Positions 29-50,234 of a stretch of DNA of 50,262 nt are shown piece by piece. This DNA is from a virus. The notes beneath the pieces were generated by a model. It saw only the letters and a list, made by a program, of their open reading frames with translations. It searched no databases and was not told the DNA's origin. A program made the translations under genes and the position numbers. The DNA lies in the IMG/VR virus record IMGVR_UViG_3300046697_000178, positions 1-50,262 of that record. One strand, written 5' to 3'. How positions within the stretch are numbered: the stretch's first letter is position 1; each line of letters begins with the position of its first letter.

Positions 29-1217
29 GCTTCTGCTCTCCTGTTTTATTGGCGATGTACAACTTAATGCTGTCAGGCGTTGCTCCGACGTTGCCGTTTT
101 TGTCGCGGCCAACTTGTAGTTCGGTAGGAAGGCCGGGGTTTGCATTTCGGAATTCAAGCTCCTCCTCCTTAGTGACCGGCCCACCGTTACCCGGCTTGTA
201 GCCTTCCATGAATCGTGGCTGACCGGCCTTGTTGAATACGATGTACGGCGCGTCCTTTGCAGGAATGTGATGTTCCTGGACGAATGCAGCCAACTGCTGT
301 TTTTGCAAAGCGGCTTTTTCTTCCGGCGTTCGTTCACGATACGCATCTCGTCTTGCATCGGCAATTTGGTCGTTTAGATAGTCCCTACCCCGAATGTAAT
401 CGTCTTGACTGATTTGCTTTGTGCGAAACACATTGCCAAGATCGCTAAGTTGCAGCCGCAATTTCGGTATGAGTCCCGTGGGATCGTCGATAAAACCGCT
501 CCCATCTTGGATACCATTGTCAATCATGCCATCCTTGATCGCTTTGGCTTTGGCCTTATTCTCATCGTTAAAAAGGTCATGCGAGAGCCCGTAGTCAACC
601 TGTGCGTTGAGCTTGTGTAGATTTGCCGCCTCCTGAGTTAGGAACGGTTCAAGTTGGGCGTGAACCATCGCCGCGTGCTCGCCAGCCTCTAGCGCGTTCT
701 GGTGGTCGATCCACTTGCTTTCCAGGCTGTTCTCGTGATTGATCGAACCCAGTTCTTTGGCCTCGCCAAACCGCTTCTCCTCTTGCCCGGCAGTGAACTC
801 TTCGCCATGTACGACATCCTTTTCGTGAAACTGTTGCAAGAGATAATCGCGCCGCGTCTGGTTCTCGTGATTGATCGCTGCCGTCCGCTCGGCGTGAATC
901 TGGTCGAGGCGTGATAGTGCATCGGTTGCCGCGGCGTGCCGCTCGAACAGTTCATCCTCGTGCATGAAGCGGGCGTCTTGCTGTTGGCCTTGAATCTGCC
1001 CTTGCTGCCCTTGCATCGCAGTGTCGTAGCCAAACTGGTCGGCCTTCAGTTGCCGCTGACCCTGGATGGCGGTCTGCTGCTGCCGGTCGGCGAAGCTGCG
1101 CTCAGCCGCCGCGCCATACACTTGATCCCGGCGGGCTTGAGCGGCGGCGTATTCCTGCTGCTGCTGCCGTCGCTGCTCTTGCCACACGTCGGAGGGCATT
1201 TCAATCGCCATAGTCAT
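1..1217 (-). CDS. N-terminal ~405 codons of a ~561-aa Gln/Glu/Lys-rich, coiled-coil-like virion-module protein. The ORF runs off position 1 and continues at 50234.
   Basis: ATG at 1217..1215 (ATGACTATGGCGATTGAA = MTMAIE), open to position 1 by my own translation (..INHENQTRRDYLLQQF.. ..KTGEQKQSQFEAKQKQ). It is absent from the ORF track because it has no stop on this side. Confidence 0.75.
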   Translation of the reverse strand, partial: MTMAIEMPSDVWQEQRRQQQQEYAAAQARRDQVYGAAAERSFADRQQQTAIQGQRQLKADQFGYDTAMQGQQGQIQGQQQDARFMHEDELFERHAAATDALSRLDQIHAERTAAINHENQTRRDYLLQQFHEKDVVHGEEFTAGQEEKRFGEAKELGSINHENSLESKWIDHQNALEAGEHAAMVHAQLEPFLTQEAANLHKLNAQVDYGLSHDLFNDENKAKAKAIKDGMIDNGIQDGSGFIDDPTGLIPKLRLQLSDLGNVFRTKQISQDDYIRGRDYLNDQIADARRDAYRERTPEEKAALQKQQLAAFVQEHHIPAKDAPYIVFNKAGQPRFMEGYKPGNGGPVTKEEELEFRNANPGLPTELQVGRDKNGNVGATPDSIKLYIANKTGEQKQSQFEAKQK

Positions 1218-1229
1218 TCATCCTTGGTT

Positions 1230-1841
1230 CTAGTAGCCACCGAAGCCCGCGAAACCCGCCGCCGCGCCGTAGCTGCCGCCCATGCTGCCCGCCGACCCGG
1301 CATAGCCGCCGCCACCGCCGCCGCCGCCCTGGTTCAGCGTGGCATACTGATACTGCAACTGCTGATTCTGCATGTTTTGTTGGGCGGACTGCTGCTGCTG
1401 CGCCAAACTCAGGTAGCCCTGATTCTGGTTCATCGCGCCCAACCCCAGCGTCATCTGGTTCTTCTGCCCCTGCTGCTGGAGGTTCAGACTTCTCTGCCCC
1501 AGGGCCAACTGGTTGGTAATCGACTGCTGTTGTAGGTTGAGGCCCTCCTGCCCCTGCTGCAAACCAATGCCGCCCAGGCCAAAGGTCTGCTGCGCGCCCA
1601 GCGTCGTCTGTTGTAACTGCTGACTAAGCGTGTTCAGCGCGTTCTGATACTGTTTCATGTAGCCCATCTTCATTGAGGGCGCGATGGACGTGCCCGCCAG
1701 CCCGGAGGAGGCTAGGGATTGCATCCCGCCGCCCAGCGCGTTCTGGTAGTTCTGATACAGGTCGTTCTTCTCCGCGTTGCCGTAGCCCTGAATGCCCTGC
1801 AGCGCTTGAGAGTACAGTTGATCGACAGTCGGTAGTGCCAT
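1230..1841 (-). CDS. Q/N/G-rich low-complexity protein (203 aa) with a poly-Gly, Gly/Ala/Tyr C-terminus; probable virion or ejection-associated protein.
   Basis: Track ORF; composition LQQQ/NQ/GGGGGGGGYAGSAGSMGGSYG; lies in the late operon between the fiber genes and the large virion proteins. Confidence 0.7.
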   Translation of the reverse strand: MALPTVDQLYSQALQGIQGYGNAEKNDLYQNYQNALGGGMQSLASSGLAGTSIAPSMKMGYMKQYQNALNTLSQQLQQTTLGAQQTFGLGGIGLQQGQEGLNLQQQSITNQLALGQRSLNLQQQGQKNQMTLGLGAMNQNQGYLSLAQQQQSAQQNMQNQQLQYQYATLNQGGGGGGGGYAGSAGSMGGSYGAAAGFAGFGGY

Positions 1842-1885
1842 GATTTTCTTCTATCAAAATAGGTCGTTTGGTTCCAAACATCGAA

Positions 1886-2299
1886 TTACCCAACCGAATC
1901 CGGTATGACTCCCCACCAAGTTCCTCCACCCGACGTACACATCAGCAATCCGGCGTAAAGGATTCCGCTGCCGGTTCCAAGTTTTACTCTGAGGTCATAT
2001 TCAACACTGACTACCCCGCCGTCCCACGACGAAATCGAATTGATGTTTGGTCCGTAGACGTAGTGGTCATTTCCTGTTATTCCAAGCTGGTACGCCCAAT
2101 CGGTTCCCGTTCTTCCAACCCAATCCGATTCTATCGAGTGCGCTTCTCCGATCACCGTTCCCGTCAAACGTGCCGATCCTGGGGTGTGGTTTACGTGAAC
2201 AGCATCGGTGAAGATGCAATTGCACTCCTGGTGTCCGTCGTGAAAATGCAGCACCGGATAGGTTCCGTTCCATGACCAAGTGATTTCTCCCGTGACCAT
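1886..2299 (-). CDS. Small (137 aa) beta-rich protein downstream of the tail fiber; possible fiber-associated or receptor-binding accessory.
   Basis: ATG at 2299 preceded by GGGGAG/AGGA, 2 nt after the fiber stop (2302..2304). The longer track start at 2341 overlaps the fiber gene. Confidence 0.65.
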   Translation of the reverse strand: MVTGEITWSWNGTYPVLHFHDGHQECNCIFTDAVHVNHTPGSARLTGTVIGEAHSIESDWVGRTGTDWAYQLGITGNDHYVYGPNINSISSWDGGVVSVEYDLRVKLGTGSGILYAGLLMCTSGGGTWWGVIPDSVG

Positions 2300-2301
2300 T
2301 C

Positions 2302-4146
2302 CTAGCTCCCCGTTGGAATCACCAACCGGTTCGGGTAGCAAATCTGATTCGTCGAGTCGAAACGCATGATCGTACCTCCACTGCGATTTACTACCACCAG
2401 CCCCGAAGTACCGTCAGTTTCCGGCCGCAGATGCGTGCAATCGCAGTTGTAAAAGTACCCGGTGCCGCAAGAGATGACCGAATTTGTCGTGTCGATCGTG
2501 ACCACGGAACTGCCGTCGCTCTTCTTCCTAAAGACGAACGCCGTTGTTCCATCGGCGTTCGGATAGACGCTGCTAATGTTCAACGCGGCTGCAAAAAGAC
2601 TACCAGTCGAAACGCTCGTCTTGATGTCGCCAGTCGCCGTGATCGCGCCAGCGGTACTCCCCAGTCCGAGCAGTGTCAGCGCTTGGCCAGCCGACAGCGA
2701 CATCCCCGACGACGATGAGCCGGTGTTGTTGCCGTAGAACGAATCGGCCGCCACAGTGACCGAGCCGGCGCTGACCGTCACCCAGCCGCCGTTATTGCGG
2801 CCGTAAGTGTTGCCGTCATTGCCGATGCTGCCCGTCGCATCGGTCAGGTAGACGGCCGTGTCAATGGACCAATTCGCCGAGCCGTCCCACTTTAAGTGCC
2901 CGACATTCGAGGCCGCCGCGAACGCCGTACCGTAAAAGCCGCCCGCGTCGTGCCCGCTGACCAACACTTGACCCAGGGCCGTGAATGTGTCGTTGGGGAT
3001 CGCATCCACCAAGTCTTGCAGCGTCGTGGCGTCGAGGGCGGCAACCTGCCCGGTGTACAACGAACTATTTCCCAGCACGGTTTGCGCGGGGATGGTGGCA
3101 ATCTTTGACAGAATGATAGGGGTGGCGGACCAAGTGCCCGTCGTCACGTTGCCCAGCGTGTTCAGCGTGGTCGAGCCCGTCCAGGCCGCCAAGGCGGTCG
3201 CATCGACATAACCCAGCGCCGCCACGTCCGTGTCTAAATCCTGCCACGTCGGCCCCGTAGCAAGGTACTGCCCCGTCGTGCCGGTCCCGAGCGAATCCTG
3301 CTTGCCCGTCCATGTTGTTGCCGAGGCAATGTAGGCGTCCGCAATCGCCGTCCCCTGCCACGTTCCGTGGGCAATGGTTCCCAAGGTTGTAAGGTCTGCT
3401 GCGCCCGGCCATTTTGTTGACGCCGCCAAGCCCGCGAAAAACGTCGTGAGGTTGATCCACTGGCCATTTGTCGCCAGAGGACCAGTGTCGTTAAAGCGAC
3501 AATAAAAGTACGAATCATCGGGAACCTCATCTACCGTGCCTGGTGCCCCGCTGCCCTCAATCGTTCCGCCCGTATACAGACCGTCTACAAATGTTGCACC
3601 GCCCGTGGTGGCCGACAAGCCACGAGAACCATCCGACCCATAGTAGGCCGCCGCTTGGAAGCCCGTGCTGGTGAAAATTACCTTGTCGGCCGGCGCAAGA
3701 ATTTCAAAGTCGCCGGACCCATCGACACCCAAACCGTAATGCCCATTGATGTCGAAATACATCCCGCCCCACAATACCGACAACGGCCCGGCCGCAGGTT
3801 CCAGGACGACGTAAGTGCCGCCGTCGCCATCTGTCTTAGTCTTCACGTCAATTAGCGGGCCAAGCGCGGTCGTGCCAATTTCCCAATGCGTGTTGGGCCA
3901 TGCCTTTTGTACGGCGTTGCTGACGTAACCCTGGTCGTGCAAGCCGTCGTAGGGGAAGAGGCCCTTCAGTGCCTTGATGATGGACTGCATCTGCGCGATC
4001 GTGTCGCCCTCGATCTGCGCCAACTGGTTGAACTGCTCGACAAGCTGATTGACCGCAGCAAAGTTCTGCTGCATCTCGCTATCGCTCTGGGCATTGACGT
4101 TGACCAGCGGCAGCGTCGCGTTTTCCGGCCAAGCGCGGGAGTTCAT
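2302..4146 (-). CDS. Tail fiber / receptor-binding protein (614 aa).
   Basis: N-terminal coiled-coil-like segment followed by long G/T/S/A-rich beta-type sequence. ATGA start/stop overlap with the upstream gene (4143..4146). Confidence 0.7.
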   Translation of the reverse strand: MNSRAWPENATLPLVNVNAQSDSEMQQNFAAVNQLVEQFNQLAQIEGDTIAQMQSIIKALKGLFPYDGLHDQGYVSNAVQKAWPNTHWEIGTTALGPLIDVKTKTDGDGGTYVVLEPAAGPLSVLWGGMYFDINGHYGLGVDGSGDFEILAPADKVIFTSTGFQAAAYYGSDGSRGLSATTGGATFVDGLYTGGTIEGSGAPGTVDEVPDDSYFYCRFNDTGPLATNGQWINLTTFFAGLAASTKWPGAADLTTLGTIAHGTWQGTAIADAYIASATTWTGKQDSLGTGTTGQYLATGPTWQDLDTDVAALGYVDATALAAWTGSTTLNTLGNVTTGTWSATPIILSKIATIPAQTVLGNSSLYTGQVAALDATTLQDLVDAIPNDTFTALGQVLVSGHDAGGFYGTAFAAASNVGHLKWDGSANWSIDTAVYLTDATGSIGNDGNTYGRNNGGWVTVSAGSVTVAADSFYGNNTGSSSSGMSLSAGQALTLLGLGSTAGAITATGDIKTSVSTGSLFAAALNISSVYPNADGTTAFVFRKKSDGSSVVTIDTTNSVISCGTGYFYNCDCTHLRPETDGTSGLVVVNRSGGTIMRFDSTNQICYPNRLVIPTGS

Positions 4147-22397: not shown

Positions 22398-25300
22398 TCA
22401 CCACGCTCCTGCTGTTGTGCGGCCGAATCCGACAAAATCGTTTTCTTCTGCGCCGCTTGCCTTTTGCTGCCTTTGCTGCAAGCGGTAAGCCATCGTCCCA
22501 TATTTCGTACTTTGTTCTTCCGGCTCCCGTTTGTCAACACCAACCTGCTGAAAATCCTTCAGCGCCGTCCAGCACACGCCGCCCGCAATTGCCCGGTCGC
22601 CGTGCCCGGTGCCGTGGTACAGCATCCCGTCCTGGACCTTTTCGTCCCACTGCCAACCCGCACATTCTTTGATAAAATCTTCCGACCGGGGTAGGAACGT
22701 ACCTTCGGCAAAGGCAAACGACAGGTCGCCAAACAGGTCGGCCTTGGCCCCGCGGCTGTTGTTGTTCCAGCCCGCATCCCTTTGCCGGTCCTGGGAAAAC
22801 GAGCCTTCCTTGAGCGGCTTAATCCAGACGTGCGGGTAGAATTGCCCCTTCCGCACCTCGGCGCCAAAGGAACCGCCCGGACCCTGCCGTTCCCAGTTCA
22901 GCACGGCATCGTGCAGCCAACGACCGAAGGCCACACACAACTGCGCGAACGGCCGTGGCGCTATCTGCGGATCGGTGTACTCCAAAACCTGCTCGCCGTT
23001 CTTGTTCCGACAGCCAATCAGCACGGAATTGGAACGACTGGCCTCGCCCTCGCCCGTGCCAATGTCGGCCCCGAGGGTGAACTTGCCGCCGGGCGCCGCG
23101 TTGTTCAAGCCGGGTTTGAACCACAGCTTGAGTGGCCCGCCCGCTTGTGGCGTCAGCTTAAGTTCCCCATCTTCCAACCTCGCCCGCCCTTCCCAGACTG
23201 GCGGCTTGACCTTCTCCCGCAGCATCACTTCCAACACGTCCTTGTCGAACGGCTTGCCGGTCACCCCGTGCGCGTTCATGTCCAATTCACGGGCGATCCA
23301 CCGCGGCGTAGCACCCGGCAGCAGGCAGTAGGCGTCGTACCAGGGCGAACGGAACTTGCCGTCCAGCTTATGGCCGCGGCGCTCCAGCTTCCGCAGATCG
23401 CTGGCATGACGCCGAGCATACCGATCGACGGCCGCTTGCTCCTCCGGCCGGACGGCAACCAGCTTGCCGTCCCGCCACACGTAGGCGTTGCGGGTCTGCG
23501 CCGGGTTGTCTTTCCAGTCCAGCACCACCTTCAGCGGATTCTCTTCGTCAGTCGCCGCCTCATAGAAGGCCCCCGCATCGCCACCATAGGTTGAGACCAG
23601 GAACATGCAATTGTGGGAAAGAAGCGGACGTCCTCCGTCGTCAAGAACGGTGAACGCCCGCCGAGGACCGCAGTTCAAAAGGTCGTACACGGCCGCCGAT
23701 TTTTGGGTGGAAGCAATAGAGCATCCATCGAACAGCCCCTCTTGATGCGACCCAAAATCGCTCCATGTGTCACCCCAACCATCCTGGCAATCTGAGCCAG
23801 CGTGAGACTCACTGCTGAAATCTCGATGATATGGTTGCCGCGTCTGTTGTTCGACTGCTGCCGCATCGTCGCCCATTGGCAATTTTCCTTGCAATATCCC
23901 AAGTCGTTGTTTATCCGATCCAGCGTCAAGCCAGCGGGCTTCTCTCCCATATCGAACAAGAAGTTGTCGAACTTCAGCCATCTCTCGCATACCGCTATTC
24001 CTCGACCACCGTAATATCGGTACCGAGAATTCCGTGGGTTTGTGCATCTCTGCAACATACCCGCCCACGTGTGGTAACTCACTGTTTTGCTCATGCCGTG
24101 TGTGAAATGTGCAAGTCTGGCCGCAACCATCCGCTGACAACCGCAACTTTTCGTTAGCCCTCTGGTGAGACTCGTCCCGATCACCGATCGCTTCTCCCCA
24201 CAATCGCATCGGCAAATCCACTTTGCATGGCCTGGCGCTGCAGAGCCATCTCTCTGAATAACCTGGAGGCAACCGAATCTCTGCCCTGTCAATTCCTTTA
24301 GTGGCCTTGGCATACTTCCACCCTTCTTTCGTTAAGACCTGATGGTCTGGGGTAAGCCTGATCCGGTACGAACGGATCGTCTCGCGCCAACCCTGAAAAA
24401 TACAGCCATCATGCGACACCCACATTCTACCGTCCCAAACGCGATGATGTAACTGAACATCCTCTATGGGAATGGGACCGTGATCCGTCACCACCAGTGT
24501 CCCTCCGGCAAGGCAATTTGTGACGTGCGAAATCGAGGACAAGACCTTGTAGTCCTTGCCGGACGCAATGAACTCCTCCGAACCAAACTCGTCCAGGGCA
24601 AACACCGTCTGCCGCCCGCCGCGGCCCACATCGCTCGTGGCCGCAAACCCCGTAAAGATAGAGTTTTGCGCCGGGTTCCAGATGGTATGGTCGGACAGGC
24701 TCCGCTCGTACCCCAGCGGCAGGAACCACCACGGCAGCATCTTCAAACCCCAATCCACCTTCCACAGAATCGTGTTCTGATCGGTGGCCGAGTCTACCAG
24801 CTTCTCGTTGCGCGTCACCAGGCCGGCTGAGAACATCGGATCACGCAGAAACCGCCGCATCAGCACGTTGATGTAGGCGAAGGTCGCCCCCTGGGCGCGG
24901 CTCTTAGGCAGGGTCAGGGCGATCGGAGTGTCGCTGGCCTCGGCGTCGTGGATGGCCTGGTCCATCGCCAGGATTACCGGGTCTTGATGCGGCCAGGTGC
25001 AATTATGAACTAGTAGTTGGCGACCGTCATTTCCTAAGACCGCGAATGCCCGACGACCACCGCAATTGATGAGATCATAGACGACCGATTGTTTCTCTGT
25101 TCTTTCCATGTCGCCCATCGGCAATTGCGAGGCTTGTAATCGCCGTCTGGATCGATCCGATCTAGCGTCAATCCCGATGGCTTCTCCCCCATGTCCTTCA
25201 GGAAGTTCACGAATTGCTGCCACCGCTTGCACACTTTGATTCCGCGACCACCGTAGCGATGCCACATTCGATTGTTCGGATTGGTGCATCGTTGCCACAT

Positions 25301-25970
25301 CGCGCACCAAGTGTAATAGATCGGAGTTGGTTTTCTGCCTCTCATGTGTCCGTGAACAACTCCCCCCTTCAGACATCCGCAACTCGTTGTTTTGCCTCTC
25401 CGCATCTGGCCGCCATCCACTACGACCTTCTTTCCGCATCGACATCGACAAATCCACTTCGCGTGATGCCCCGTTTTCTGGGGATAATCCCCATCTCGCT
25501 CGATAACCGTCAGGTAGTCGAACACTTGCCCGGTCATATCCTTCGCTCGCCATTTTCCAGCCATGATCTGTATACACCCTATGATCTTTGGTGAGGTAAA
25601 CTCCATAGGCAAGCATGACAGACATGTGACCCTTGTACAAGGCCCCACCTTGAGAAATCCAAGAATCTCCATCCCACACAAGATCATCCTTTGTCACTTT
25701 TTCGATAGGGACAGAACCTCGGTCAGTGACAACAAGAGTGCCTGCCGCAATACAGAACGGCAGCACCTTCTCCTTGGCCCGCGGATTCATCAGCCACCCA
25801 AAGGCATTGAAGAAGAACAGCACATCCTGCATGGCCGCATTGTAGAGGCAGTATTGCAGCTGCGGATCATGCTCGGCCGCCTCCCGCATCCGCACCCGCC
25901 AAGCCAGATTGGCCGCGACCCCATCCTTCCACGTCGGCATGTACTCGATCCAGGGCGTGGCAGGATTCAT
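22398..25970 (-). CDS. terL: Terminase large subunit precursor containing two inteins (about 637-aa mature extein).
   Basis: Walker A LPKSRAQGATF, Walker B VFALDEFG, motif III FLVSTYGG, and a nuclease region LGADIGTGEGEASRSNSV. ATGA coupling at 25967..25970 (the track start at 25985 is TTG). Confidence 0.85.
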   Translation of the reverse strand: MNPATPWIEYMPTWKDGVAANLAWRVRMREAAEHDPQLQYCLYNAAMQDVLFFFNAFGWLMNPRAKEKVLPFCIAAGTLVVTDRGSVPIEKVTKDDLVWDGDSWISQGGALYKGHMSVMLAYGVYLTKDHRVYTDHGWKMASEGYDRASVRLPDGYRARWGLSPENGASREVDLSMSMRKEGRSGWRPDAERQNNELRMSEGGSCSRTHERQKTNSDLLHLVRDVATMHQSEQSNVASLRWSRNQSVQAVAAIRELPEGHGGEAIGIDARSDRSRRRLQASQLPMGDMERTEKQSVVYDLINCGGRRAFAVLGNDGRQLLVHNCTWPHQDPVILAMDQAIHDAEASDTPIALTLPKSRAQGATFAYINVLMRRFLRDPMFSAGLVTRNEKLVDSATDQNTILWKVDWGLKMLPWWFLPLGYERSLSDHTIWNPAQNSIFTGFAATSDVGRGGRQTVFALDEFGSEEFIASGKDYKVLSSISHVTNCLAGGTLVVTDHGPIPIEDVQLHHRVWDGRMWVSHDGCIFQGWRETIRSYRIRLTPDHQVLTKEGWKYAKATKGIDRAEIRLPPGYSERWLCSARPCKVDLPMRLWGEAIGDRDESHQRANEKLRLSADGCGQTCTFHTRHEQNSELPHVGGYVAEMHKPTEFSVPILRWSRNSGMREMAEVRQLLVRYGREARWLDAGSDKQRLGILQGKLPMGDDAAAVEQQTRQPYHRDFSSESHAGSDCQDGWGDTWSDFGSHQEGLFDGCSIASTQKSAAVYDLLNCGPRRAFTVLDDGGRPLLSHNCMFLVSTYGGDAGAFYEAATDEENPLKVVLDWKDNPAQTRNAYVWRDGKLVAVRPEEQAAVDRYARRHASDLRKLERRGHKLDGKFRSPWYDAYCLLPGATPRWIARELDMNAHGVTGKPFDKDVLEVMLREKVKPPVWEGRARLEDGELKLTPQAGGPLKLWFKPGLNNAAPGGKFTLGADIGTGEGEASRSNSVLIGCRNKNGEQVLEYTDPQIAPRPFAQLCVAFGRWLHDAVLNWERQGPGGSFGAEVRKGQFYPHVWIKPLKEGSFSQDRQRDAGWNNNSRGAKADLFGDLSFAFAEGTFLPRSEDFIKECAGWQWDEKVQDGMLYHGTGHGDRAIAGGVCWTALKDFQQVGVDKREPEEQSTKYGTMAYRLQQRQQKASGAEENDFVGFGRTTAGAW
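23610..24515 (-). mobile_element. Intein 2 (302 aa), inserted between Walker B and motif III of TerL.
   Basis: SISHVTN|CLAGGTLVVTDHG.. block-B-like LTPDHQVLT ..AAVYDLLNCGPRRAFTVLDDGGRPLLSHN|CMFLVSTYGG. Confidence 0.85.
23675..24313 (-). CDS. Endonuclease-like ORF (212 aa) nested in intein 2 in the +1 frame: zinc ribbon, LDRI..NCxWAT module and a C-terminal HTH.
   Basis: LTGQRFGCLQV..WICRCDCG..SCGC..YYGGRGIAVCERWLKFDNFLFDMGEKPAGLTLDRINNDLGYCKENCQWATMRQQSNNRR..SLTLAQIARMVGVTHGAILGRIKRG. It has its own ATG (24313) and stop, with GAAGGGTGGA upstream. Confidence 0.75.
   Translation of the reverse strand: MPRPLKELTGQRFGCLQVIQRDGSAAPGHAKWICRCDCGEKRSVIGTSLTRGLTKSCGCQRMVAARLAHFTHGMSKTVSYHTWAGMLQRCTNPRNSRYRYYGGRGIAVCERWLKFDNFLFDMGEKPAGLTLDRINNDLGYCKENCQWATMRQQSNNRRGNHIIEISAVSLTLAQIARMVGVTHGAILGRIKRGCSMDALLLPPKNRRPCTTF
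25002..25754 (-). mobile_element. Intein 1 (251 aa), inserted near the TerL N-terminus, upstream of Walker A.
   Basis: KEKVLPF|CIAAGTLVVTDRG.. block-B-like LTKDHRVYT ..VVYDLINCGGRRAFAVLGNDGRQLLVHN|CTWPHQ. Confidence 0.85.
25034..25564 (-). CDS. Endonuclease-like ORF (176 aa) nested in intein 1 in the +1 frame. It is a paralog of 23675..24313 and lacks the C-terminal HTH.
   Basis: MTGQVFDYLTVI..WICRCRCG..SCGC..YGGRGIKVCKRWQQFVNFLKDMGEKPSGLTLDRIDPDGDYKPRNCRWATWKEQRNN. Its tail overprints intein block F. Confidence 0.65.
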   Translation of the reverse strand: MAGKWRAKDMTGQVFDYLTVIERDGDYPQKTGHHAKWICRCRCGKKVVVDGGQMRRGKTTSCGCLKGGVVHGHMRGRKPTPIYYTWCAMWQRCTNPNNRMWHRYGGRGIKVCKRWQQFVNFLKDMGEKPSGLTLDRIDPDGDYKPRNCRWATWKEQRNNRSSMISSIAVVVGHSRS

Positions 25971-26236
25971 GTCCATGTCTCCCAACCGCCACCAGCATCC
26001 TTGTACTCTCTCGCAGCCTTCTCTAAAAGATCAATAATGCCAGCGGGCGTTCCATCCAACTGCCAACGCACCTTGCAGTCTGACCAATGCACGCGGAGTA
26101 GCATTGAAAGAAAAAAACGCTTCGCAATCGGTCCCAGTCGATCCTCTTCCTCTACACGAACATCAAACGGCATAGCGTTTGAGGAAATGATAGACGCGGG
26201 TATCTTGGTGCTGTTTTTCATGTTGAAAACTTTCAT
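25967..26236 (-). CDS. Hypothetical protein (89 aa) in a low-GC island.
   Basis: Track ORF. ATGA overlaps occur at both ends (26233..26236 with the upstream gene, 25967..25970 with terL). Confidence 0.55.
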   Translation of the reverse strand: MKVFNMKNSTKIPASIISSNAMPFDVRVEEEDRLGPIAKRFFLSMLLRVHWSDCKVRWQLDGTPAGIIDLLEKAAREYKDAGGGWETWT

Positions 26237-44888: not shown

Positions 44889-47800
44889 TTATTTGAACGG
44901 CTTGAATGAATCATGGCCAGACGAAGAATCCGAGGAGCCTTTTGGCTTCGGCTCGTTCGGCACGGGTGTTATGCCGATGAGGGAGGCGGCTTTTTCGCCG
45001 ATGGTCCTTGCTCTGGTGGTTTTGTTCCTGCCTTTCCCTTCCGTCAACTCTTGCATGTTGCGGATTGAGAACGGCAAAAACTGCTCGGCGATATAGGTTC
45101 CCAACTGCTTGACCTGCTCGACCTGGGGATCGTTTTCGTTGCGGATCGGGTGGTAGTAGAAATCTCGGTTGTTGGCCATTTGAGAAACTGCTGCCAACAG
45201 CGGGTGGGTCTTGCTTATCGCGGTGCGAGGAATGTCTTGAGACAACCAACCGACCGGATCGCCTTTGAGAAGGTGCTTGAACCAAGAGCCAAGATCGCGC
45301 ATGTACGTCGCCAACTCAACCTTCTTCTCATTCCCGTCTGCATCCAGTTGGCCGGTGGGAATGTGGAAGAAGTCAGGCAAGGATCGCGGGCCGTGGCCGG
45401 TGTACATGAAATTCATCGCCGCCCCCATGATGCCCGTGACAAAGGGCAGAGCGAGTGTATAACTCGCGGCATGGGTCAACTTCGGATTCCGACCGTTAAG
45501 CAAATCGACAGGCACTTTTCCGAGGTCGCGGATTCCGCCGCCAAGTTCCCGGAAGGTTCCCAGGTTCCAACCCATCGAACGGGTCAGGATCGTGCCCATA
45601 TCCTTGAGCGACTTGTTCCAAAATAGGTTGTCGTAGATGAGCTGTCCCATGCGGTTGTCCACGCTGTCAACGACCTTGCCCATCACGTCCCGCATTTGTG
45701 CCCGATCGGCGCCAGCCGGCAGCTTCGACAATTCGTAGCGGGCCATGTCAGCCATCACGCCCAACTTCATGCGGGGAATGTAGACTTCCATCATCGGACG
45801 AGAGGCTTGTTCGATCAGGGCGAGCGGTCCCTGGATCGCAGCGGACGGTCGCCCTTCCCGCAACGCCTTGCGGAACCCGTCCCAAAAGGTTGTTGCCTCC
45901 TTGCCGATCCGGTACATTTGGCTCTGCCGCGTGCGGAAGCCGCCGGCCTGAAGACCGTCAACGATGGCAGCAAAGTCCCCGCCGACAGAACCGGGATGCA
46001 AGGCTTCCTCCAGAACTTTGCTGCCACCGAGGAGCGTGCTGACCGGCGCCGTCCAAGCCTTCAGTCCCATCTTCACCGATTCGAGCGGGTGCCCTTCGAC
46101 GAGCATCTTCGCCGCCAGCGCAGACCTGGAAACGATGGCGTTGATCGTTGTGCCCGTGACGTGGAAGCCTGACAGGCCAAGCTGCGCCATGTTCATGGCG
46201 TTGCCCGCGAATCGAATGGCATCGTAGACCGGGTTTCCGACTAGGCCGGGCGACAGGTAATTGTTCAGCACGCGGGCGGCGTCGGGATGGGCGTAGTAGT
46301 CGCCGCGTTTAAGCAGTTCTGGCGGCCCTTTCGATCCATCGGGGTTTGTTGTTGGCCGCCGCTGAAAGACTTCGCCGATCTTGTCGTTGATCTTTACCCA
46401 ACCAGCCGGCTTGTCCTTCGGACCGTGCACCAGCTTGATGTAACCGCTGTCCTTGCCTTCCTGAAGAACCTGTTGCCCCATGACGTAGCGATTCATTTCG
46501 TGGAGCTTTAGCAGCGTCAGATCGACCGGGTTGCTGGTGATCGGTTCCAGCCCAAGGGCGAGACCTTCTTTTGTGGTGGGGATCGTTCGCTTCTTCAAGA
46601 ACGACTTTGACCCTTCCAGCGGTCGCTTGCCGAAAATCTCCTCCGCCTTGGCCTTGTCCTTCCAGATGTGCGGGAAGTAATCCTTGATGAACTTGTCGAG
46701 GTTTCCTTTGCCGAGGGCCTGGACGCGACCACGGGCCTCGTCCAGCAGCGTCCGCATCGCTAGGGCAGCAGCGTCATGCTTGGTATTCCACCATGCCGGC
46801 TTAGCGGCCTTTGGGACTTCGATCGCGTGGATGAAGTCGTACTGCTGCTGTTGTGGCAGCTTGGCGGCGACTTGGCCGAATTGGTCCAGCAGGGCCTTGG
46901 CTTGCTCGTGCTGTAAGGCCAGCTTTGCGGCCCGTTCGCGGACGTTGCCGGCCATAGCCTTTGACTCGCCGCCGGCCTGCGTGGGGTTAAAGGCTTCGGC
47001 TAGCCCCTTGCCGACCTTGCCGACCGCCTCCGCGGCAATTTCGAGGTCTTTGGCAGCGCCGGGCGGCAAGAGCATGGCGTGAAAAACATTGGGCTCTGGT
47101 TCGCTGCCCTCGGTATTGAAGAGGTCTTGCTGTCCGGGCGCTCCCTCCTTGGAAAGCATGGTCTTTTGGACTTCCTTGCCGTGATCGGCCCCCTTCCATG
47201 CTTCCGGCTTGCCTTGGGGAGTCGGTTGCAGAGCGAAGTCGTCCTGTCCTTCCGGCTTGGCTTCGGCGTGCCCCTTATCCCGCAATGTGTTGATGTGGGA
47301 GATCGTATCCTCGGGATCATCAAACGGTGTGCCCAGCAGTTCAGATAAACGCTGCGCCAGTTCATCGGGCTGGCCGGATCGCACCGAGGCAATCGACTGG
47401 TCGAGCATTTTGTCGCGTGTCTCGGGGTCGGCCATCAGTGGCTTGGCAACCGGGTCTCTGTTGTCCTCCATCTCCTGGTAGCCCTGCCCTTGCTTCTCAA
47501 TACTCTTGTCTCTGAAGATGGGCCTCTGATAGCTGACCGCTTGCTTGGCCAGCTTCTCTTTCATGTTCTCGACACCCGGCCCCACATCGCGGCCGGCATC
47601 GTCAATGATCTTCTGAAGCGGCCCGACCTTGGCCTTGTCGGGCTTAGCCTTGGCGTTCTCGGCGTCCAGGGCACCTTGTGCCCATTGCTGCATGGCCTTC
47701 TTTGCCGCCACGGGGAGTTCGTGGAGCGGGGCGTACTTCACAGCCTCTGGTATAATCTTTCCGTTGGCCACGTCCTGGGCGGCCTGGGCGCGATCCTCTT

Positions 47801-49766
47801 CCTTGTTCGCCTTAGTCAGAGCGGCGCGGTCAGCGGGAGTCTCGGGCTTCTGCGAGGGGACAAGGGGTTTCTTTTCGAGTGCGGCACGCTCGGGGCTTCC
47901 AAAAGACGTTGACTGTGCGATTTTCTCGTCGGCATCCTTGTCGCTGTAGCCGATTGACTTCAGATAATCGCGGTAGGAATTGATGTCTTTCCAGTTGGCC
48001 GCCTCGCCCTTGACCGCATCGCCCTTAGACTTCAGCGGCCTTCTGCCCGCTTTCTTTTTGTTGTCGTCTTGCTCATCCCCTACTCCCGCGTTCGCATCAG
48101 GCCGATCCTGACCATTTCCGACTGCCGCTTCTTCGCCGGGCGCTTGGACACCTTCTTTGGCAACTTGGGCAGTTTCTCCTTGAGGAGGACTGGCTTCTTG
48201 ATCTTGGACATTGGGGTCTCCTGGTCTTAAAGGTGATTCAGACGCAGCGGAAGGCCCGCTATCGGCCTTATTTTGCGTCGGAGCGTCGGATGTGGCTCCT
48301 GGAGCCTGTTTGGATTCGGACGCATCATTGGCGGCCACAGTGGCCTTGTGGGCGTCCCTGACGGAATTGCGGTATTCTTGGTTCTGTCCCTGCTTGCTTT
48401 TGCCATACCCCGCATCTTCCCAATGCTGCCTACTCACGTCGTCGGTATCGGGGAGTTTGGCGGGGTCGCCATTACCAGCCTTGCCAGTTCCATGCTGATC
48501 TATGACACCTGGGGCCGCCAGGAACGGCATTGACTCCAAACCCTGCTTTGTTCCCTCCCACCCGGCTCTGAGTATCTTTCCTGCTTCGGGAACTCCCTGC
48601 CCGGAAGCCCATTGGCCGGTCTCTTGGATTGCTTCCTTGATCGCAGATGCACCGCCCATCATTCCGCTGCCGGAGGCAACTGAACTCCCATATTTGGCAC
48701 CGCTCTTAATGAGCGCATTGTTGAAAACTTTGGCAACAGCTTCCTTGCCTCCCAACTTTTCGATCGCCGCCGCACTCAAGCCTTTGCCAAGGGCCTCGCT
48801 ACCCACTCCGACAAAGAGCAACGATTGCGCCGTTGCACTGGTTAGAGCCACCCAGGAAGCCGCCCGTGGCGTCATGTTCGCATCGAGAGCCAAATCGTAG
48901 GCGTCATCGTACATACCAGGAAAAAAGGAAGCGGCTCCTCCAAGAACACTTGCTGCCTTGACCGCCTTAGTACCGCCTCCCAGAAGGGCAACACCAGAAC
49001 CAGCGACCTCAGAAGCCTTGCCAGCACCGTAGAGACTTGGAGCCATTCCTGCCGCCCCAACGATCCCACGTTCGTACCACGGCGCGTCTGGTTTGTTGTA
49101 AGGACTCGCAGACGACCATACTTTGTAAAGCCGATCGGCAAATCTCTCTTTGTCTGGGGCTTCCGAACTGCCCGTCCATCGGCGAGCAGTATCAAACATG
49201 TTTAGAGCACCGCCTACAATGGCGCCTCCCGCCCTGGGCAATAATGGAGCCTTTTCCTCTCTTGATGCGATGTCATGTACCGCTTCAAGAACAAGTTCTC
49301 GATCCTCGGCGGGAACCTTCACGGCCGCGCTGATTGCCGAAGCATGGTTTGCAGCACCTTCGCTAACCATCTTGTCCGCCGCGTTGTAGGCGTTGACCTG
49401 TCTTTTGTAGAACTCCGAATGCTGTGGCGTCCATTTCTGGTCGGGGTGCGAAAAGTTCCAATCCTTTTCGGCGCCGGCAACGTCGTTCTCGCCTTCGTAC
49501 TTTGCGTTGGGAACAAAGGCGCGATCATATCCTCGCGCGCGGTTTTTTATCCAAAAAACCGATTCGTCAACGCCACCCTGTTCATCTTTCGGTAATCCGC
49601 TCATCTTCGCTTGCACGGGCGGCAGTTCGCCCTGAGTCGGCACGGAGCGGTTGGGCTCGAAGCTCGTCGAGGGCTGGTGGGAGGGCGGCGCATCGGGAAA
49701 CGCATCCCACTCATCTTTCGGCGGGGAATCAGGAAACGCATCCCAGGGGTCAGCGGTGTCCGGCAT
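44889..49766 (-). CDS. Giant virion-associated protein (about 1,625 aa); internal, ejection or pilot-type protein candidate.
   Basis: The largest ORF. It has N-terminal Gly/Ala-rich hydrophobic stretches, a central charged disordered region and a large C-terminal globular part. Its ATG at 49766 overlaps the upstream TGA (TGATG). Confidence 0.7.
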   Translation of the reverse strand: MPDTADPWDAFPDSPPKDEWDAFPDAPPSHQPSTSFEPNRSVPTQGELPPVQAKMSGLPKDEQGGVDESVFWIKNRARGYDRAFVPNAKYEGENDVAGAEKDWNFSHPDQKWTPQHSEFYKRQVNAYNAADKMVSEGAANHASAISAAVKVPAEDRELVLEAVHDIASREEKAPLLPRAGGAIVGGALNMFDTARRWTGSSEAPDKERFADRLYKVWSSASPYNKPDAPWYERGIVGAAGMAPSLYGAGKASEVAGSGVALLGGGTKAVKAASVLGGAASFFPGMYDDAYDLALDANMTPRAASWVALTSATAQSLLFVGVGSEALGKGLSAAAIEKLGGKEAVAKVFNNALIKSGAKYGSSVASGSGMMGGASAIKEAIQETGQWASGQGVPEAGKILRAGWEGTKQGLESMPFLAAPGVIDQHGTGKAGNGDPAKLPDTDDVSRQHWEDAGYGKSKQGQNQEYRNSVRDAHKATVAANDASESKQAPGATSDAPTQNKADSGPSAASESPLRPGDPNVQDQEASPPQGETAQVAKEGVQAPGEEAAVGNGQDRPDANAGVGDEQDDNKKKAGRRPLKSKGDAVKGEAANWKDINSYRDYLKSIGYSDKDADEKIAQSTSFGSPERAALEKKPLVPSQKPETPADRAALTKANKEEDRAQAAQDVANGKIIPEAVKYAPLHELPVAAKKAMQQWAQGALDAENAKAKPDKAKVGPLQKIIDDAGRDVGPGVENMKEKLAKQAVSYQRPIFRDKSIEKQGQGYQEMEDNRDPVAKPLMADPETRDKMLDQSIASVRSGQPDELAQRLSELLGTPFDDPEDTISHINTLRDKGHAEAKPEGQDDFALQPTPQGKPEAWKGADHGKEVQKTMLSKEGAPGQQDLFNTEGSEPEPNVFHAMLLPPGAAKDLEIAAEAVGKVGKGLAEAFNPTQAGGESKAMAGNVRERAAKLALQHEQAKALLDQFGQVAAKLPQQQQYDFIHAIEVPKAAKPAWWNTKHDAAALAMRTLLDEARGRVQALGKGNLDKFIKDYFPHIWKDKAKAEEIFGKRPLEGSKSFLKKRTIPTTKEGLALGLEPITSNPVDLTLLKLHEMNRYVMGQQVLQEGKDSGYIKLVHGPKDKPAGWVKINDKIGEVFQRRPTTNPDGSKGPPELLKRGDYYAHPDAARVLNNYLSPGLVGNPVYDAIRFAGNAMNMAQLGLSGFHVTGTTINAIVSRSALAAKMLVEGHPLESVKMGLKAWTAPVSTLLGGSKVLEEALHPGSVGGDFAAIVDGLQAGGFRTRQSQMYRIGKEATTFWDGFRKALREGRPSAAIQGPLALIEQASRPMMEVYIPRMKLGVMADMARYELSKLPAGADRAQMRDVMGKVVDSVDNRMGQLIYDNLFWNKSLKDMGTILTRSMGWNLGTFRELGGGIRDLGKVPVDLLNGRNPKLTHAASYTLALPFVTGIMGAAMNFMYTGHGPRSLPDFFHIPTGQLDADGNEKKVELATYMRDLGSWFKHLLKGDPVGWLSQDIPRTAISKTHPLLAAVSQMANNRDFYYHPIRNENDPQVEQVKQLGTYIAEQFLPFSIRNMQELTEGKGRNKTTRARTIGEKAASLIGITPVPNEPKPKGSSDSSSGHDSFKPFK

Positions 49767-50234
49767 CAGGGAGCCCACTTCTTTCTGCCAGTCGGCGTCA
49801 CAAACCATGTGCCGTGGAGTTGCCCTGCCTCTTCAATCGTCTTCGGATGCGGGAGCGAAGAATCGTTCTGGCCGCCCGGCTGCTGTTGGCCAGATGGCAT
49901 CGCCGCTTGACCTTGCGGGGGTGCCCAGTCGCCGAATCGGTCCATCGCGTCTTGTCTTGCGTCCTTCAGGCCTTCCGTCCAGGCGATCGCGTCACGCTCG
50001 TAATGCCCAGGGATCATGTAGTCGGCCTCGATGGGCTTCTGGTGTTTTGTCAGATACCCCTGCACGATGTTTTGCCGATTGGCATTCTGCTTGCGGTTGA
50101 ACTCCATCTGGCCGTGCTGATCTTGCGCGCTGATTTTCGAGCGTTCCACGTCCATTCGTTGTGCTTGAATCTTCAGTATGTTCTCTTGTGCCGTAGTGAA
50201 GTTCTTTTGCTTGTCCGCTTCCTTTGTCTCTGCC
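49766..50234 (-). CDS. C-terminal 156 codons of the junction-spanning gene that starts at 1217.
   Basis: Track ORF 49766..50155 is only its internal-Met tail. The frame is continuous through 50234 into position 1 via the 28-nt overlap (..FEAKQKQAETKEADKQKNF..MDVERSK..). Confidence 0.75.

Follow-up and report, generated by a model that had tools for sequence, protein, structure and literature searches.

Two inteins, each carrying a second gene overprinted in another reading frame, were identified in a probable large terminase (TerL-like) gene present in a 50,262-nucleotide stretch of viral DNA (positions 1 to 50,262 of the IMG/VR record IMGVR_UViG_3300046697_000178, the whole of which is referred to below as the window). 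We suggest, with a probability of about 0.78, that each of these elements is a composite mobile unit, in which a mini-intein carries an HNH-like gene of the free-standing type, shifted by +1 with respect to the intein frame and translated separately. The nested gene would lie in the loop that, in canonical inteins, houses an endonuclease domain read in frame. A composite of a mini-intein and a free-standing-type gene had been proposed in an earlier note on this DNA, and this part of the note is retained here. The coordinates of all the features are given in Table 1.

Both elements have the characteristics of Hint-type inteins. Intein 1 is inserted at ...KVLPF/CTWPHQ and intein 2 at ...SHVTN/CMFLVSTYGG, the N and the +1 C of the latter site being invariant in intein-free homologs. 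Cys1, which occurs in both window inteins, is invariant in a 22-sequence intein alignment, as are T55 and H58 in block B and the C-terminal H301 and N302; the window inteins end in VHN/C and SHN/C, and the +1 residue in the 74 relatives described below is Cys, except for two which have Ser. The earlier note had recognized two related Hint inteins by these same features, and its coordinates proved to be exact. The match of intein 2 with the TIGR01445 (intein_Nterm) model (E 9e-5, 23.4 bits) is below the 24.5-bit cutoff, and a Pfam Hint_2 match is likewise under its cutoff; the profile of the intein family aligns with block B of the Mtu RecA intein (E 7.6e-4). When the intein frame of intein 2 was modeled with AlphaFold2, residues 1-88 and 270-302 gave pLDDT values (predicted local distance difference test) of about 90-96, and residues 92-268 only 31-45. 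The 36 best matches of this model in a Foldseek search of the Protein Data Bank (PDB) (E <= 0.15) were all inteins, Hint-like or intein-like domains, with probabilities of 0.97-1.00 and E values from 1.1e-3; the best were mini-inteins, and the matches included Spl DnaX, Ssp DnaB, Mtu RecA, gp41-1, and Npu DnaE. The boundary of the N-terminal Hint part of intein 1 was set by analogy with this model. An Rfam scan for group I or group II introns gave no match. The intact catalytic residues, along with the presumed need for the host gene, suggest that both elements are class-1-type inteins capable of splicing. The lower G+C content of the intein segments, which had been noticed previously, was confirmed, with 51-54% in the inteins vs. 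60-62% in the exteins, and the third-position G+C is 0.41-0.60 in the former and 0.75-0.83 in the latter.

Each of the nested open reading frames (ORFs) has its own ATG and stop codon and is offset by +1 from the host ORF, and the intein frame is free of stop codons across both of them. The claim that a self-contained gene of the endonuclease type lies in frame +1 of each intein was upheld, and both products matched the family phrog_374 (E 1.8e-57 for ORF 1 and 1.8e-68 for ORF 2). The two are 50.6% identical over 160 aligned codons. The stop codon of ORF 1 is located 10 codons before the end of intein 1, so that its last 18 codons or so overlap the C-terminal Hint part, and its frame is open further upstream, up to an ATG at 25687. 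ORF 2 stops 21 codons before the end of intein 2, its last seven or so sense codons overlapping the Hint VYDLLN block, and its strand-strand-helix element reads D132-R133...N144...N156.

The relatives of these inteins were collected in three ways. A search with the precursor protein yielded 77 relatives, of which about 57 inteins, located in TerL-like proteins at several sites, in family A DNA polymerases, and in SNF2-type helicases, align from end to end in the intein frame with 27-65% identity; a pattern scan of IMG/VR showed that at least 436 stretches encode a relative of the intein family, the best 80 of which were examined for the reading frame; and a scan of reference genomes added five further relatives, including one on a Parapusillimonas chromosome. 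The set surveyed for frame consists of 74 non-identical related inteins from independent assemblies; TerL-like genes account for four of the insertion sites, and PolA and SNF2-helicase genes have several apiece. Of the 74 HNH-like ORFs, 73 are in frame +1, one is in frame +2, and none is in the intein frame, which answers the question raised in the earlier note as to whether the endonuclease of homologous inteins is in frame, out of frame or absent; the ORF is intact in 73 of the 74. No stop codon was found in the intein frame of any of the 74, nor is the host gene split by a frame-0 stop in the window ORF or in any of these relatives. The DNA of four relatives (five inteins) gave the HNH homolog in frame +1 every time. 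The same frame relation occurs in isolated phages, namely APSE-1 to -7, the Caulobacter phages GB2A, RW, RLK, and KcrB, and the Shewanella phage SFCi1. No in-frame Hint-HNH fusion was present among the 77 TerL/intein matches or the 120 HNH matches listed, the longer HNH homologs having duplicated modules and no Hint domains. One intein (L043:2501-3418) is the only one of the 74 with a premature stop codon in its nested +1 ORF, 52 codons of which are left with the intein frame still open; it looks like a decaying endonuclease gene.

The openness of the intein frame was assessed by permuting synonymous codons within each nested ORF, which preserves both the protein and the codon usage. With the two window ORFs, 9.3 and 5.8 intein-frame stops were expected and none was observed, and not one of the 500 shuffles of either ORF was stop-free. 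The third frame contains 12 and 10 stops, vs. 10.9 and 8.3 expected. For 72 nested ORFs together, the shuffles predicted 521 stops in frame 0, where none was found, and the control frame contained 842, vs. 779 expected; in the equivalent frame of free-standing homologs there are 24 stops (L091), 23 (L092), and 4 (BcepMigl gp71). Based on these shuffles and on the repetition of the frame relation in independent relatives, both chance and sequencing error are excluded as the origin of the open intein frame, the former in line with the earlier note, which had judged such an open frame very unlikely to arise by chance.

Selection does not act equally on the two frames. Nucleotide diversity at the three codon positions of the overlap was 0.449, 0.407, and 0.611, which is the pattern of the nested frame, whereas the parts encoding only Hint residues show the pattern of the host frame (0.397, 0.330, and 0.676 in the N-terminal part; 0.346, 0.240, and 0.647 in the C-terminal part). 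In the overlap, the nested frame has a mean pairwise amino acid identity of 45%, compared with 24.7% for the intein frame and 26.5% for the non-coding third frame, and the nested frame was the most conserved in all 2556 pairs. Purifying selection acts on the nested frame. Since amino acid conservation tracks this frame, and that of the intein frame is no better than that of the third frame, the dual coding is asymmetric, the intein frame being selected essentially only to remain open. The selection on both frames postulated in the earlier note is therefore accurate as far as stop avoidance is concerned, and does not extend to the amino acid sequence of the intein frame. Stop avoidance may be all that is required of this frame, because its product would be spliced out. 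Two-frame constraint, in the stricter sense, is suggested only where the overlap begins and where it ends. On the 5' side, about 20 initial nested codons lie over the conserved Hint residues GW..AS.G.DR...RLPDGY, and it is here that third-position diversity reaches its minimum (0.539); on the 3' side, the tail of the nested ORF lies over the conserved VYDL block. For selection on the hydrophilicity of the spacer, there was only a weak trend (mean z -0.82 vs. -0.21 in the control frame). A search with the frame-0 spacer of intein 2 matched 33 representative proteins (E <= 1e-3) among 1.84 billion; its use as an estimate of abundance was dropped, since the spacer is too poorly conserved and these 33 matches are weak.

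The mechanism which we propose can be outlined as follows. The precursor made from the host mRNA in frame 0 would have a disordered spacer of about 130-180 residues connecting its two Hint halves; these would fold, splice, and release a functional terminase, the predicted spliced product having about 642 aa. Internal initiation of ribosomes at the nested ATG, which lies just behind block B and follows a purine-rich Shine-Dalgarno-like stretch, would give, as a separate product, a protein of about 20-24 kDa. Its presumed action would be to cut intein-free alleles in co-infecting phages, and repair from the occupied allele would then copy the intein and the endonuclease gene together.

Several points weigh against this scheme. 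Splicing, separate translation of the nested gene, nuclease activity, and homing are all inferred. The identification of the host gene as terL is probable and is based on motifs, sub-threshold Pfam matches, and gene order. The motifs KSR(A/G)QG(A/G)T, a conserved DE (ALDEF/ALDEL), and LVSTY are common to the host extein and to intein-free homologs of 657-683 aa, with which the alignment spans the whole extein, and GADI and HGDR are likewise conserved in the host-gene homologs; we take all of these to be TerL motifs. PF03354 (TerL_ATPase) matched six of 14 host-gene homologs, in each case below the threshold (best E 0.0046), the spliced extein had no significant match in Pfam or PHROG, and the host extein had none among the PDB sequences. 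As regards gene order, a gene of about 595 aa, without any PHROG match, comes next after the host gene in the window as well as in L001 and L004. The Shine-Dalgarno-like stretches are weak, especially that of ORF 1, and are explained in part by conserved Hint residues. ORF 1 may be partly degenerate or decaying, since the C-terminal helix-turn-helix module of about 50 residues present in ORF 2 is absent from it, as it is from the close relatives P0011, P0005, and L032; an intein of 300 codons inserted at the same TerL site (L017:2501-3400), which is about 50 codons longer, probably retains this module in its nested ORF, which is 67% identical over residues 1-161.

The nested protein itself also raises doubts. 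Neither HNH_3 nor AP2, the domains to which the earlier note had likened it, is recognized by Pfam or NCBIfam, in which the nested ORFs had no match (E <= 0.1 or E <= 1), and a search of PDB sequences with the nested protein or its 61-sequence profile gave none either. The HNH label comes from the PHROG families and from the names of viral structure models. The AlphaFold2 model of ORF 2, based on a 61-sequence alignment, has a mean pLDDT of 91.4 and matches 151 viral structure models with E <= 1e-3, several of them bearing names such as HNH endonuclease, HTH homing endonuclease, AP2/ERF domain, and PVL ORF-50-like; nothing significant was found when it was compared with the PDB using Foldseek, the HNH enzyme PacI ranking 41st with E 3. 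Secondary structure prediction places strands at residues 130-133 and 145-148 and a helix at residues 150-156, and R133, N144, and N156 are invariant in the nested-protein family. In HNH enzymes, the position of R133 would be that of the general-base His. An invariant Arg in the strand-strand-helix element thus takes the place of the expected catalytic residue, so that nuclease activity is plausible but unproven, and it is uncertain in a family with no relative in Pfam, NCBIfam, or the PDB.

These features would also be compatible with a DNA-binding protein which is not a working nuclease (a targeting or maturase-like factor, or a regulator), the break being made by another enzyme. The D-R...N...N element with no conserved His at the catalytic position and the absence of a significant PDB fold match despite a pLDDT of 91 are in keeping with a protein of this kind, as are the relatives named after AP2/ERF or DNA-binding domains. 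The zinc ribbon and YGGRGI modules, moreover, are duplicated in longer homologs, as is often the case with DNA-binding modules: P0078, P0081, and P0095, which are HNH-like homologs of 353-369 aa, have two to three copies of the zinc ribbon or two copies of YGGRGI...LDRID, and the family, which comprises at least 4987 sequence homologs, is modular. The HNH label has also been called "less certain" in the case of the Pacc40 homolog (Arsenault et al. 2025, PMC11855218). We nevertheless consider a purely DNA-binding role unlikely: the PHROG matches are strong and the families concerned are labeled HNH endonuclease, the Asn residues of the strand-strand-helix element are conserved, and the gene is consistently associated with mobile inteins, which occupy many sites, and is also found free-standing between phage genes, as is usual for homing endonuclease genes.

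The start regions of the nested genes bear on whether they are translated separately, as proposed here. In 69 relatives, the start codon (ATG in 50, GTG in 19) was located at intein codons 62-84, mostly 63-73, right behind block B. It is preceded by GARGGNTGG, and the same bases encode the conserved Hint residues (E/K)GW; GW is also present in the Mtu RecA intein. The Gly codon of GW ends in a purine in 71% of the relatives vs. 39% of the other Hint Gly codons, and for GGG alone Fisher's test gave p 5e-4, a value inflated by relatedness. A scan for internal promoters and terminators gave counts no higher than those in shuffles. A stop codon in frame +1 usually occurs 0-13 codons upstream of the nested start. 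Alternatively, ribosomes reading the intein frame might undergo a programmed +1 frameshift, yielding a fusion of the N-extein, the N-terminal Hint part, and the HNH-like protein and leaving the nested start unused. Both ORFs are on the same strand and mRNA, and some relatives, like intein 1 of the window, have a +1 frame that extends without a stop far upstream of the conserved start, the upstream stop being at codons 9-30. In most relatives, however, the +1 frame is closed just before the conserved ATG or GTG, as it is by the TAA seven codons upstream of ORF 2; no conserved slippery run was seen in the aligned start regions, and the equivalent residue is the start in free-standing homologs. 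The start signals thus appear to favor independent initiation, and frameshifting strikes us as very unlikely. That paired indels hide an ordinary in-frame HNH intein, as the earlier note had feared of compensating 1-nt errors, or that the open frame is a by-product of G+C-rich sequence, has nothing to commend it beyond its prior plausibility for a single metagenomic contig and is next to impossible, given the same frame relation in 73 of 74 non-identical inteins from independent assemblies and in isolated phages, the lack of homologs with the HNH-like part in frame, and the shuffles of the window ORFs, which were never stop-free; intein-frame stops in relatives, which the same note had named as a counter-argument, numbered 0 in 74.

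Intein 1 is 64.5% identical to the intein inserted at the same site in P0011 and intein 2 is 50% identical to that of P0006, whereas the two are only 36.6% identical to each other. A recent duplication is not supported, since each intein is closer to same-site inteins in other phages than to its partner. The TerL homologs have no intein, one at differing sites, or two. Homologs lacking an intein already have, directly behind the insertion point, an invariant Cys at site 2 and a Cys or Val at site 1, and the insertion points coincide with conserved motifs in the TerL-like, PolA, and helicase genes. Insert-free mini-inteins belonging to this Hint family were found in P0015, P0033, P0052, and L031:1766. 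Of three nested-gene homologs whose contexts were checked, two are truly free-standing and located between phage genes, and the third (L090) lies inside a TerL ORF of 899 codons. Taken together, the patchy distribution, the insert-free mini-inteins, the free-standing homologs, and the foreign base composition fit the capture of a free-standing endonuclease gene by a mini-intein and its subsequent spread by homing. The insert-free mini-intein at L031:1766-2134 has 123 residues, and the same polymerase gene carries an HNH-bearing intein at 2501-3421. The TerL homolog P0004 (1601 aa) contains two inteins of this family and a LAGLIDADG domain (PF14528), which suggests that there may be three inteins in one terminase gene.

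The earlier note had held the architecture to be undescribed. It is in fact already known from two bioRxiv reports (10.1101/2025.01.02.630785 and 10.64898/2026.09.14.751524) and from the annotation of the Hamiltonella phage APSE-1, in which P45/P46 belongs to the family of the window inteins. The ORF P46 was annotated in 1999 as nested inside the polymerase gene P45 (GenBank AF157835, NC_000935). The P45 intein is 31% identical over all 302 residues, and P46, named HNH endonuclease in RefSeq, is the same HNH-like gene in frame +1, with 38% identity; the host is a family A DNA polymerase with one intein, whereas the window has a terminase with two. P46 (L093/L094:2931-3353) was annotated from an internal ATG, giving 141 aa; the family homology begins at an upstream GTG (VHHRAKDITG...), and the annotated start is probably too far downstream.

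Actinophage inteins, including some in terminase genes, have been reported to contain antisense LAGLIDADG, antisense Vsr-like, or same-strand endonuclease VII-like genes (Gosselin, Arsenault & Gogarten, bioRxiv 10.1101/2025.01.02.630785). They resemble the window inteins in their intact host-frame Hint domain, the disordered in-frame middle part, the endonuclease in another frame with free-standing phage relatives, the hosts (large terminase and DNA polymerase among them), and the origin proposed, namely the invasion of an intein by a free-standing endonuclease gene. Their same-strand endonuclease is, however, VII-like, in "frame 3," and matches PDB 1E7D, whereas the window genes are zinc-ribbon HNH-like genes in frame +1 with no PDB match; and the arrangement was called rare, whereas the IMG/VR scan described above gave at least 436 stretches for the window family. 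For the window intein, no match was obtained among actinophage inteins, and the single Mycobacterium match was the insert of Pacc40, which is not an intein. A cyanobacterial dnaX intein with an out-of-frame LAGLIDADG endonuclease and two-frame selection has also been described (Phillips et al., bioRxiv 10.64898/2026.09.14.751524); according to that report, the first proposal of an out-of-frame endonuclease goes back to Gorbalenya in 1998. This intein likewise shows purifying selection on the endonuclease frame, a relaxed intein frame, and mini-intein relatives, and a secondary invasion was proposed; it differs in the LAGLIDADG nature of the enzyme, the cellular host gene, and the frame. Phage methylases are also known to harbor hidden out-of-frame HNH insertions (ShiLan domain; Pacc40 gp60) (Arsenault et al. 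2025, PMC11855218). The insert in gp60 of the Mycobacterium phage Pacc40 (L099:1501-1941) belongs to the HNH-like family of the window (profile E 8.8e-61) and its host frame is open, but there is no intein, the insert is kept as a loop of the host protein, and the frame is +2. Fractured genes have a free-standing endonuclease gene between the parts of a split intein (Dassa et al. 2009, PMC2677866). As in the window, a gene of the free-standing type lies at the point where endonucleases insert into an intein; in fractured genes, however, the intein frame is broken, giving two host ORFs and trans-splicing, whereas it is continuous in all 74 members of the present set. L090 seemed to be split in this way in the gene calls, and was discarded as a candidate because the continuous TerL ORF is present. 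In the literature found, there was no description of this endonuclease-like family as an intein partner, of its abundance, of the strict conservation of its frame, or of two copies in one terminase gene, and the window pair belongs to a large family unsurveyed in that literature.

A broader proposal, to which we give somewhat better than even odds, is that these elements are the product of an ancient, abundant, and stable partnership rather than a rare transitional state: an HNH-like gene would be permanently overprinted on a mini-intein, in frame +1 or +2, in at least three essential phage gene families and in cellular assemblies, with a start signal inside Hint codons and a presumed nuclease without the canonical catalytic His. 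If this is true, the mini-intein with an overprinted endonuclease gene would be a major mobile-element architecture missed by standard annotation and by intein surveys. Gene callers give either the long or the nested ORF and seldom both, so that phage annotations miss an entire class of endonuclease genes; in the source of the window, only the long ORF was called. On the Logan contig L090 (L090:1610-4866), the gene calls include the nested ORF and a shortened C-terminal host ORF despite the continuous TerL ORF. The family lends support to the model in which the splicing domain comes first and the endonuclease invades later, and shows that an out-of-frame arrangement can be retained over deep divergence, with intein identities as low as about 26%. 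It also provides a clean natural case of asymmetric overprinting, with ordinary purifying selection on one frame and essentially only stop avoidance on the other. Mini-inteins which tolerate a disordered insert of about 180 residues, together with the uncharacterized endonuclease-like family, may be of use in protein engineering.

Table 1. Features of the terminase-like gene of the window, its two inteins and the nested ORFs, and positions of the sister lineage.
Feature	Position	Strand	Remarks
Host gene, probable large terminase (TerL-like) precursor	22398..25985	(-)	1195 codons
Intein 1	25002..25754	(-)	251 codons, aa 78-328 of precursor; Cys1 CIAAGTLVV..., block B TKDH, ...LLVHN, then +1 Cys
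Intein 1, N-terminal Hint part	25497..25754	(-)	About residues 1-86, host frame; conserved block in 57-intein alignment
Intein 1, spacer	25086..25496	(-)	Host frame; S/R/E/G-rich, stop-free "shadow" of nested ORF 1
Intein 1, C-terminal Hint part	25002..25085	(-)	VVYDLINCGGRRAFAVLGNDGRQLLVHN
Nested ORF 1	25034..25564	(-)	Frame +1, 176 aa; zinc ribbon and YGGRGI...LDRID...NCRWAT module
AGGGTG, possible weak Shine-Dalgarno-like site	25575..25580	(-)	10 nt upstream of ORF 1 ATG; putative
Intein 2	23610..24515	(-)	302 codons, aa 491-792 of precursor; Cys1 CLAGGTLVV..., block B TPDH, ...LLSHN, then +1 Cys
Intein 2, N-terminal Hint part	24252..24515	(-)	Residues 1-88; AlphaFold2 pLDDT 90-96
Intein 2, spacer	23712..24242	(-)	Host frame, residues 92-268; predicted disordered, pLDDT 31-45
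Intein 2, C-terminal Hint part	23610..23708	(-)	Residues 270-302; pLDDT about 90
Nested ORF 2	23675..24313	(-)	Frame +1, 212 aa; zinc ribbon (WICRCDCG...SCGC), helical region, YGGRGI module, strand-strand-helix, C-terminal helix-turn-helix
GAAGGGTGG, Shine-Dalgarno-like stretch	24318..24326	(-)	4 nt upstream of ORF 2 ATG; also encodes conserved Hint E-G-W
TAA in frame +1	24332..24334	(-)	Seven codons upstream of ORF 2 ATG; closes nested frame before start
Sister lineage, frame +2	L043:1169-2026; L059:1262-2122; L067:1277-2137; L078:1256-2122; L087:2501-3460; L096:2001-2900		L096, Salmonella phage SE2

The public call of the host protein (P0001) has 1192 aa, which is compatible with a start at the ATG at 25976. 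The DNA of the whole host gene had no match among GenBank phages, and a PHROG scan of ten large neighboring ORFs (window 4143-49808, including an ORF of 1639 residues at 44889-49808) gave no match for any of them. The phage is very distant from characterized phages, since none of these ten ORFs matches PHROG.

Apart from the phages, the complete chromosome of Parapusillimonas sp. JC17 (NZ_CP197474; L085:2501-3406) has a +1 HNH-like ORF in a DNA polymerase gene, presumably located in a prophage. A sister lineage also exists: there, DNA polymerase genes contain a related Hint intein whose HNH-like ORF, likewise related, is in frame +2, the intein frame being again stop-free. The N-terminal Hint part was matched by 115 Salmonella phage records, and the nested ORF was seen in SE2, the one record checked. 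The DNA polymerase of SE2 (NC_016763; L096:660-3759) is annotated as two coding sequences, 660-3044 and 3157-3759, the first of which ends about 48 codons past the intein.

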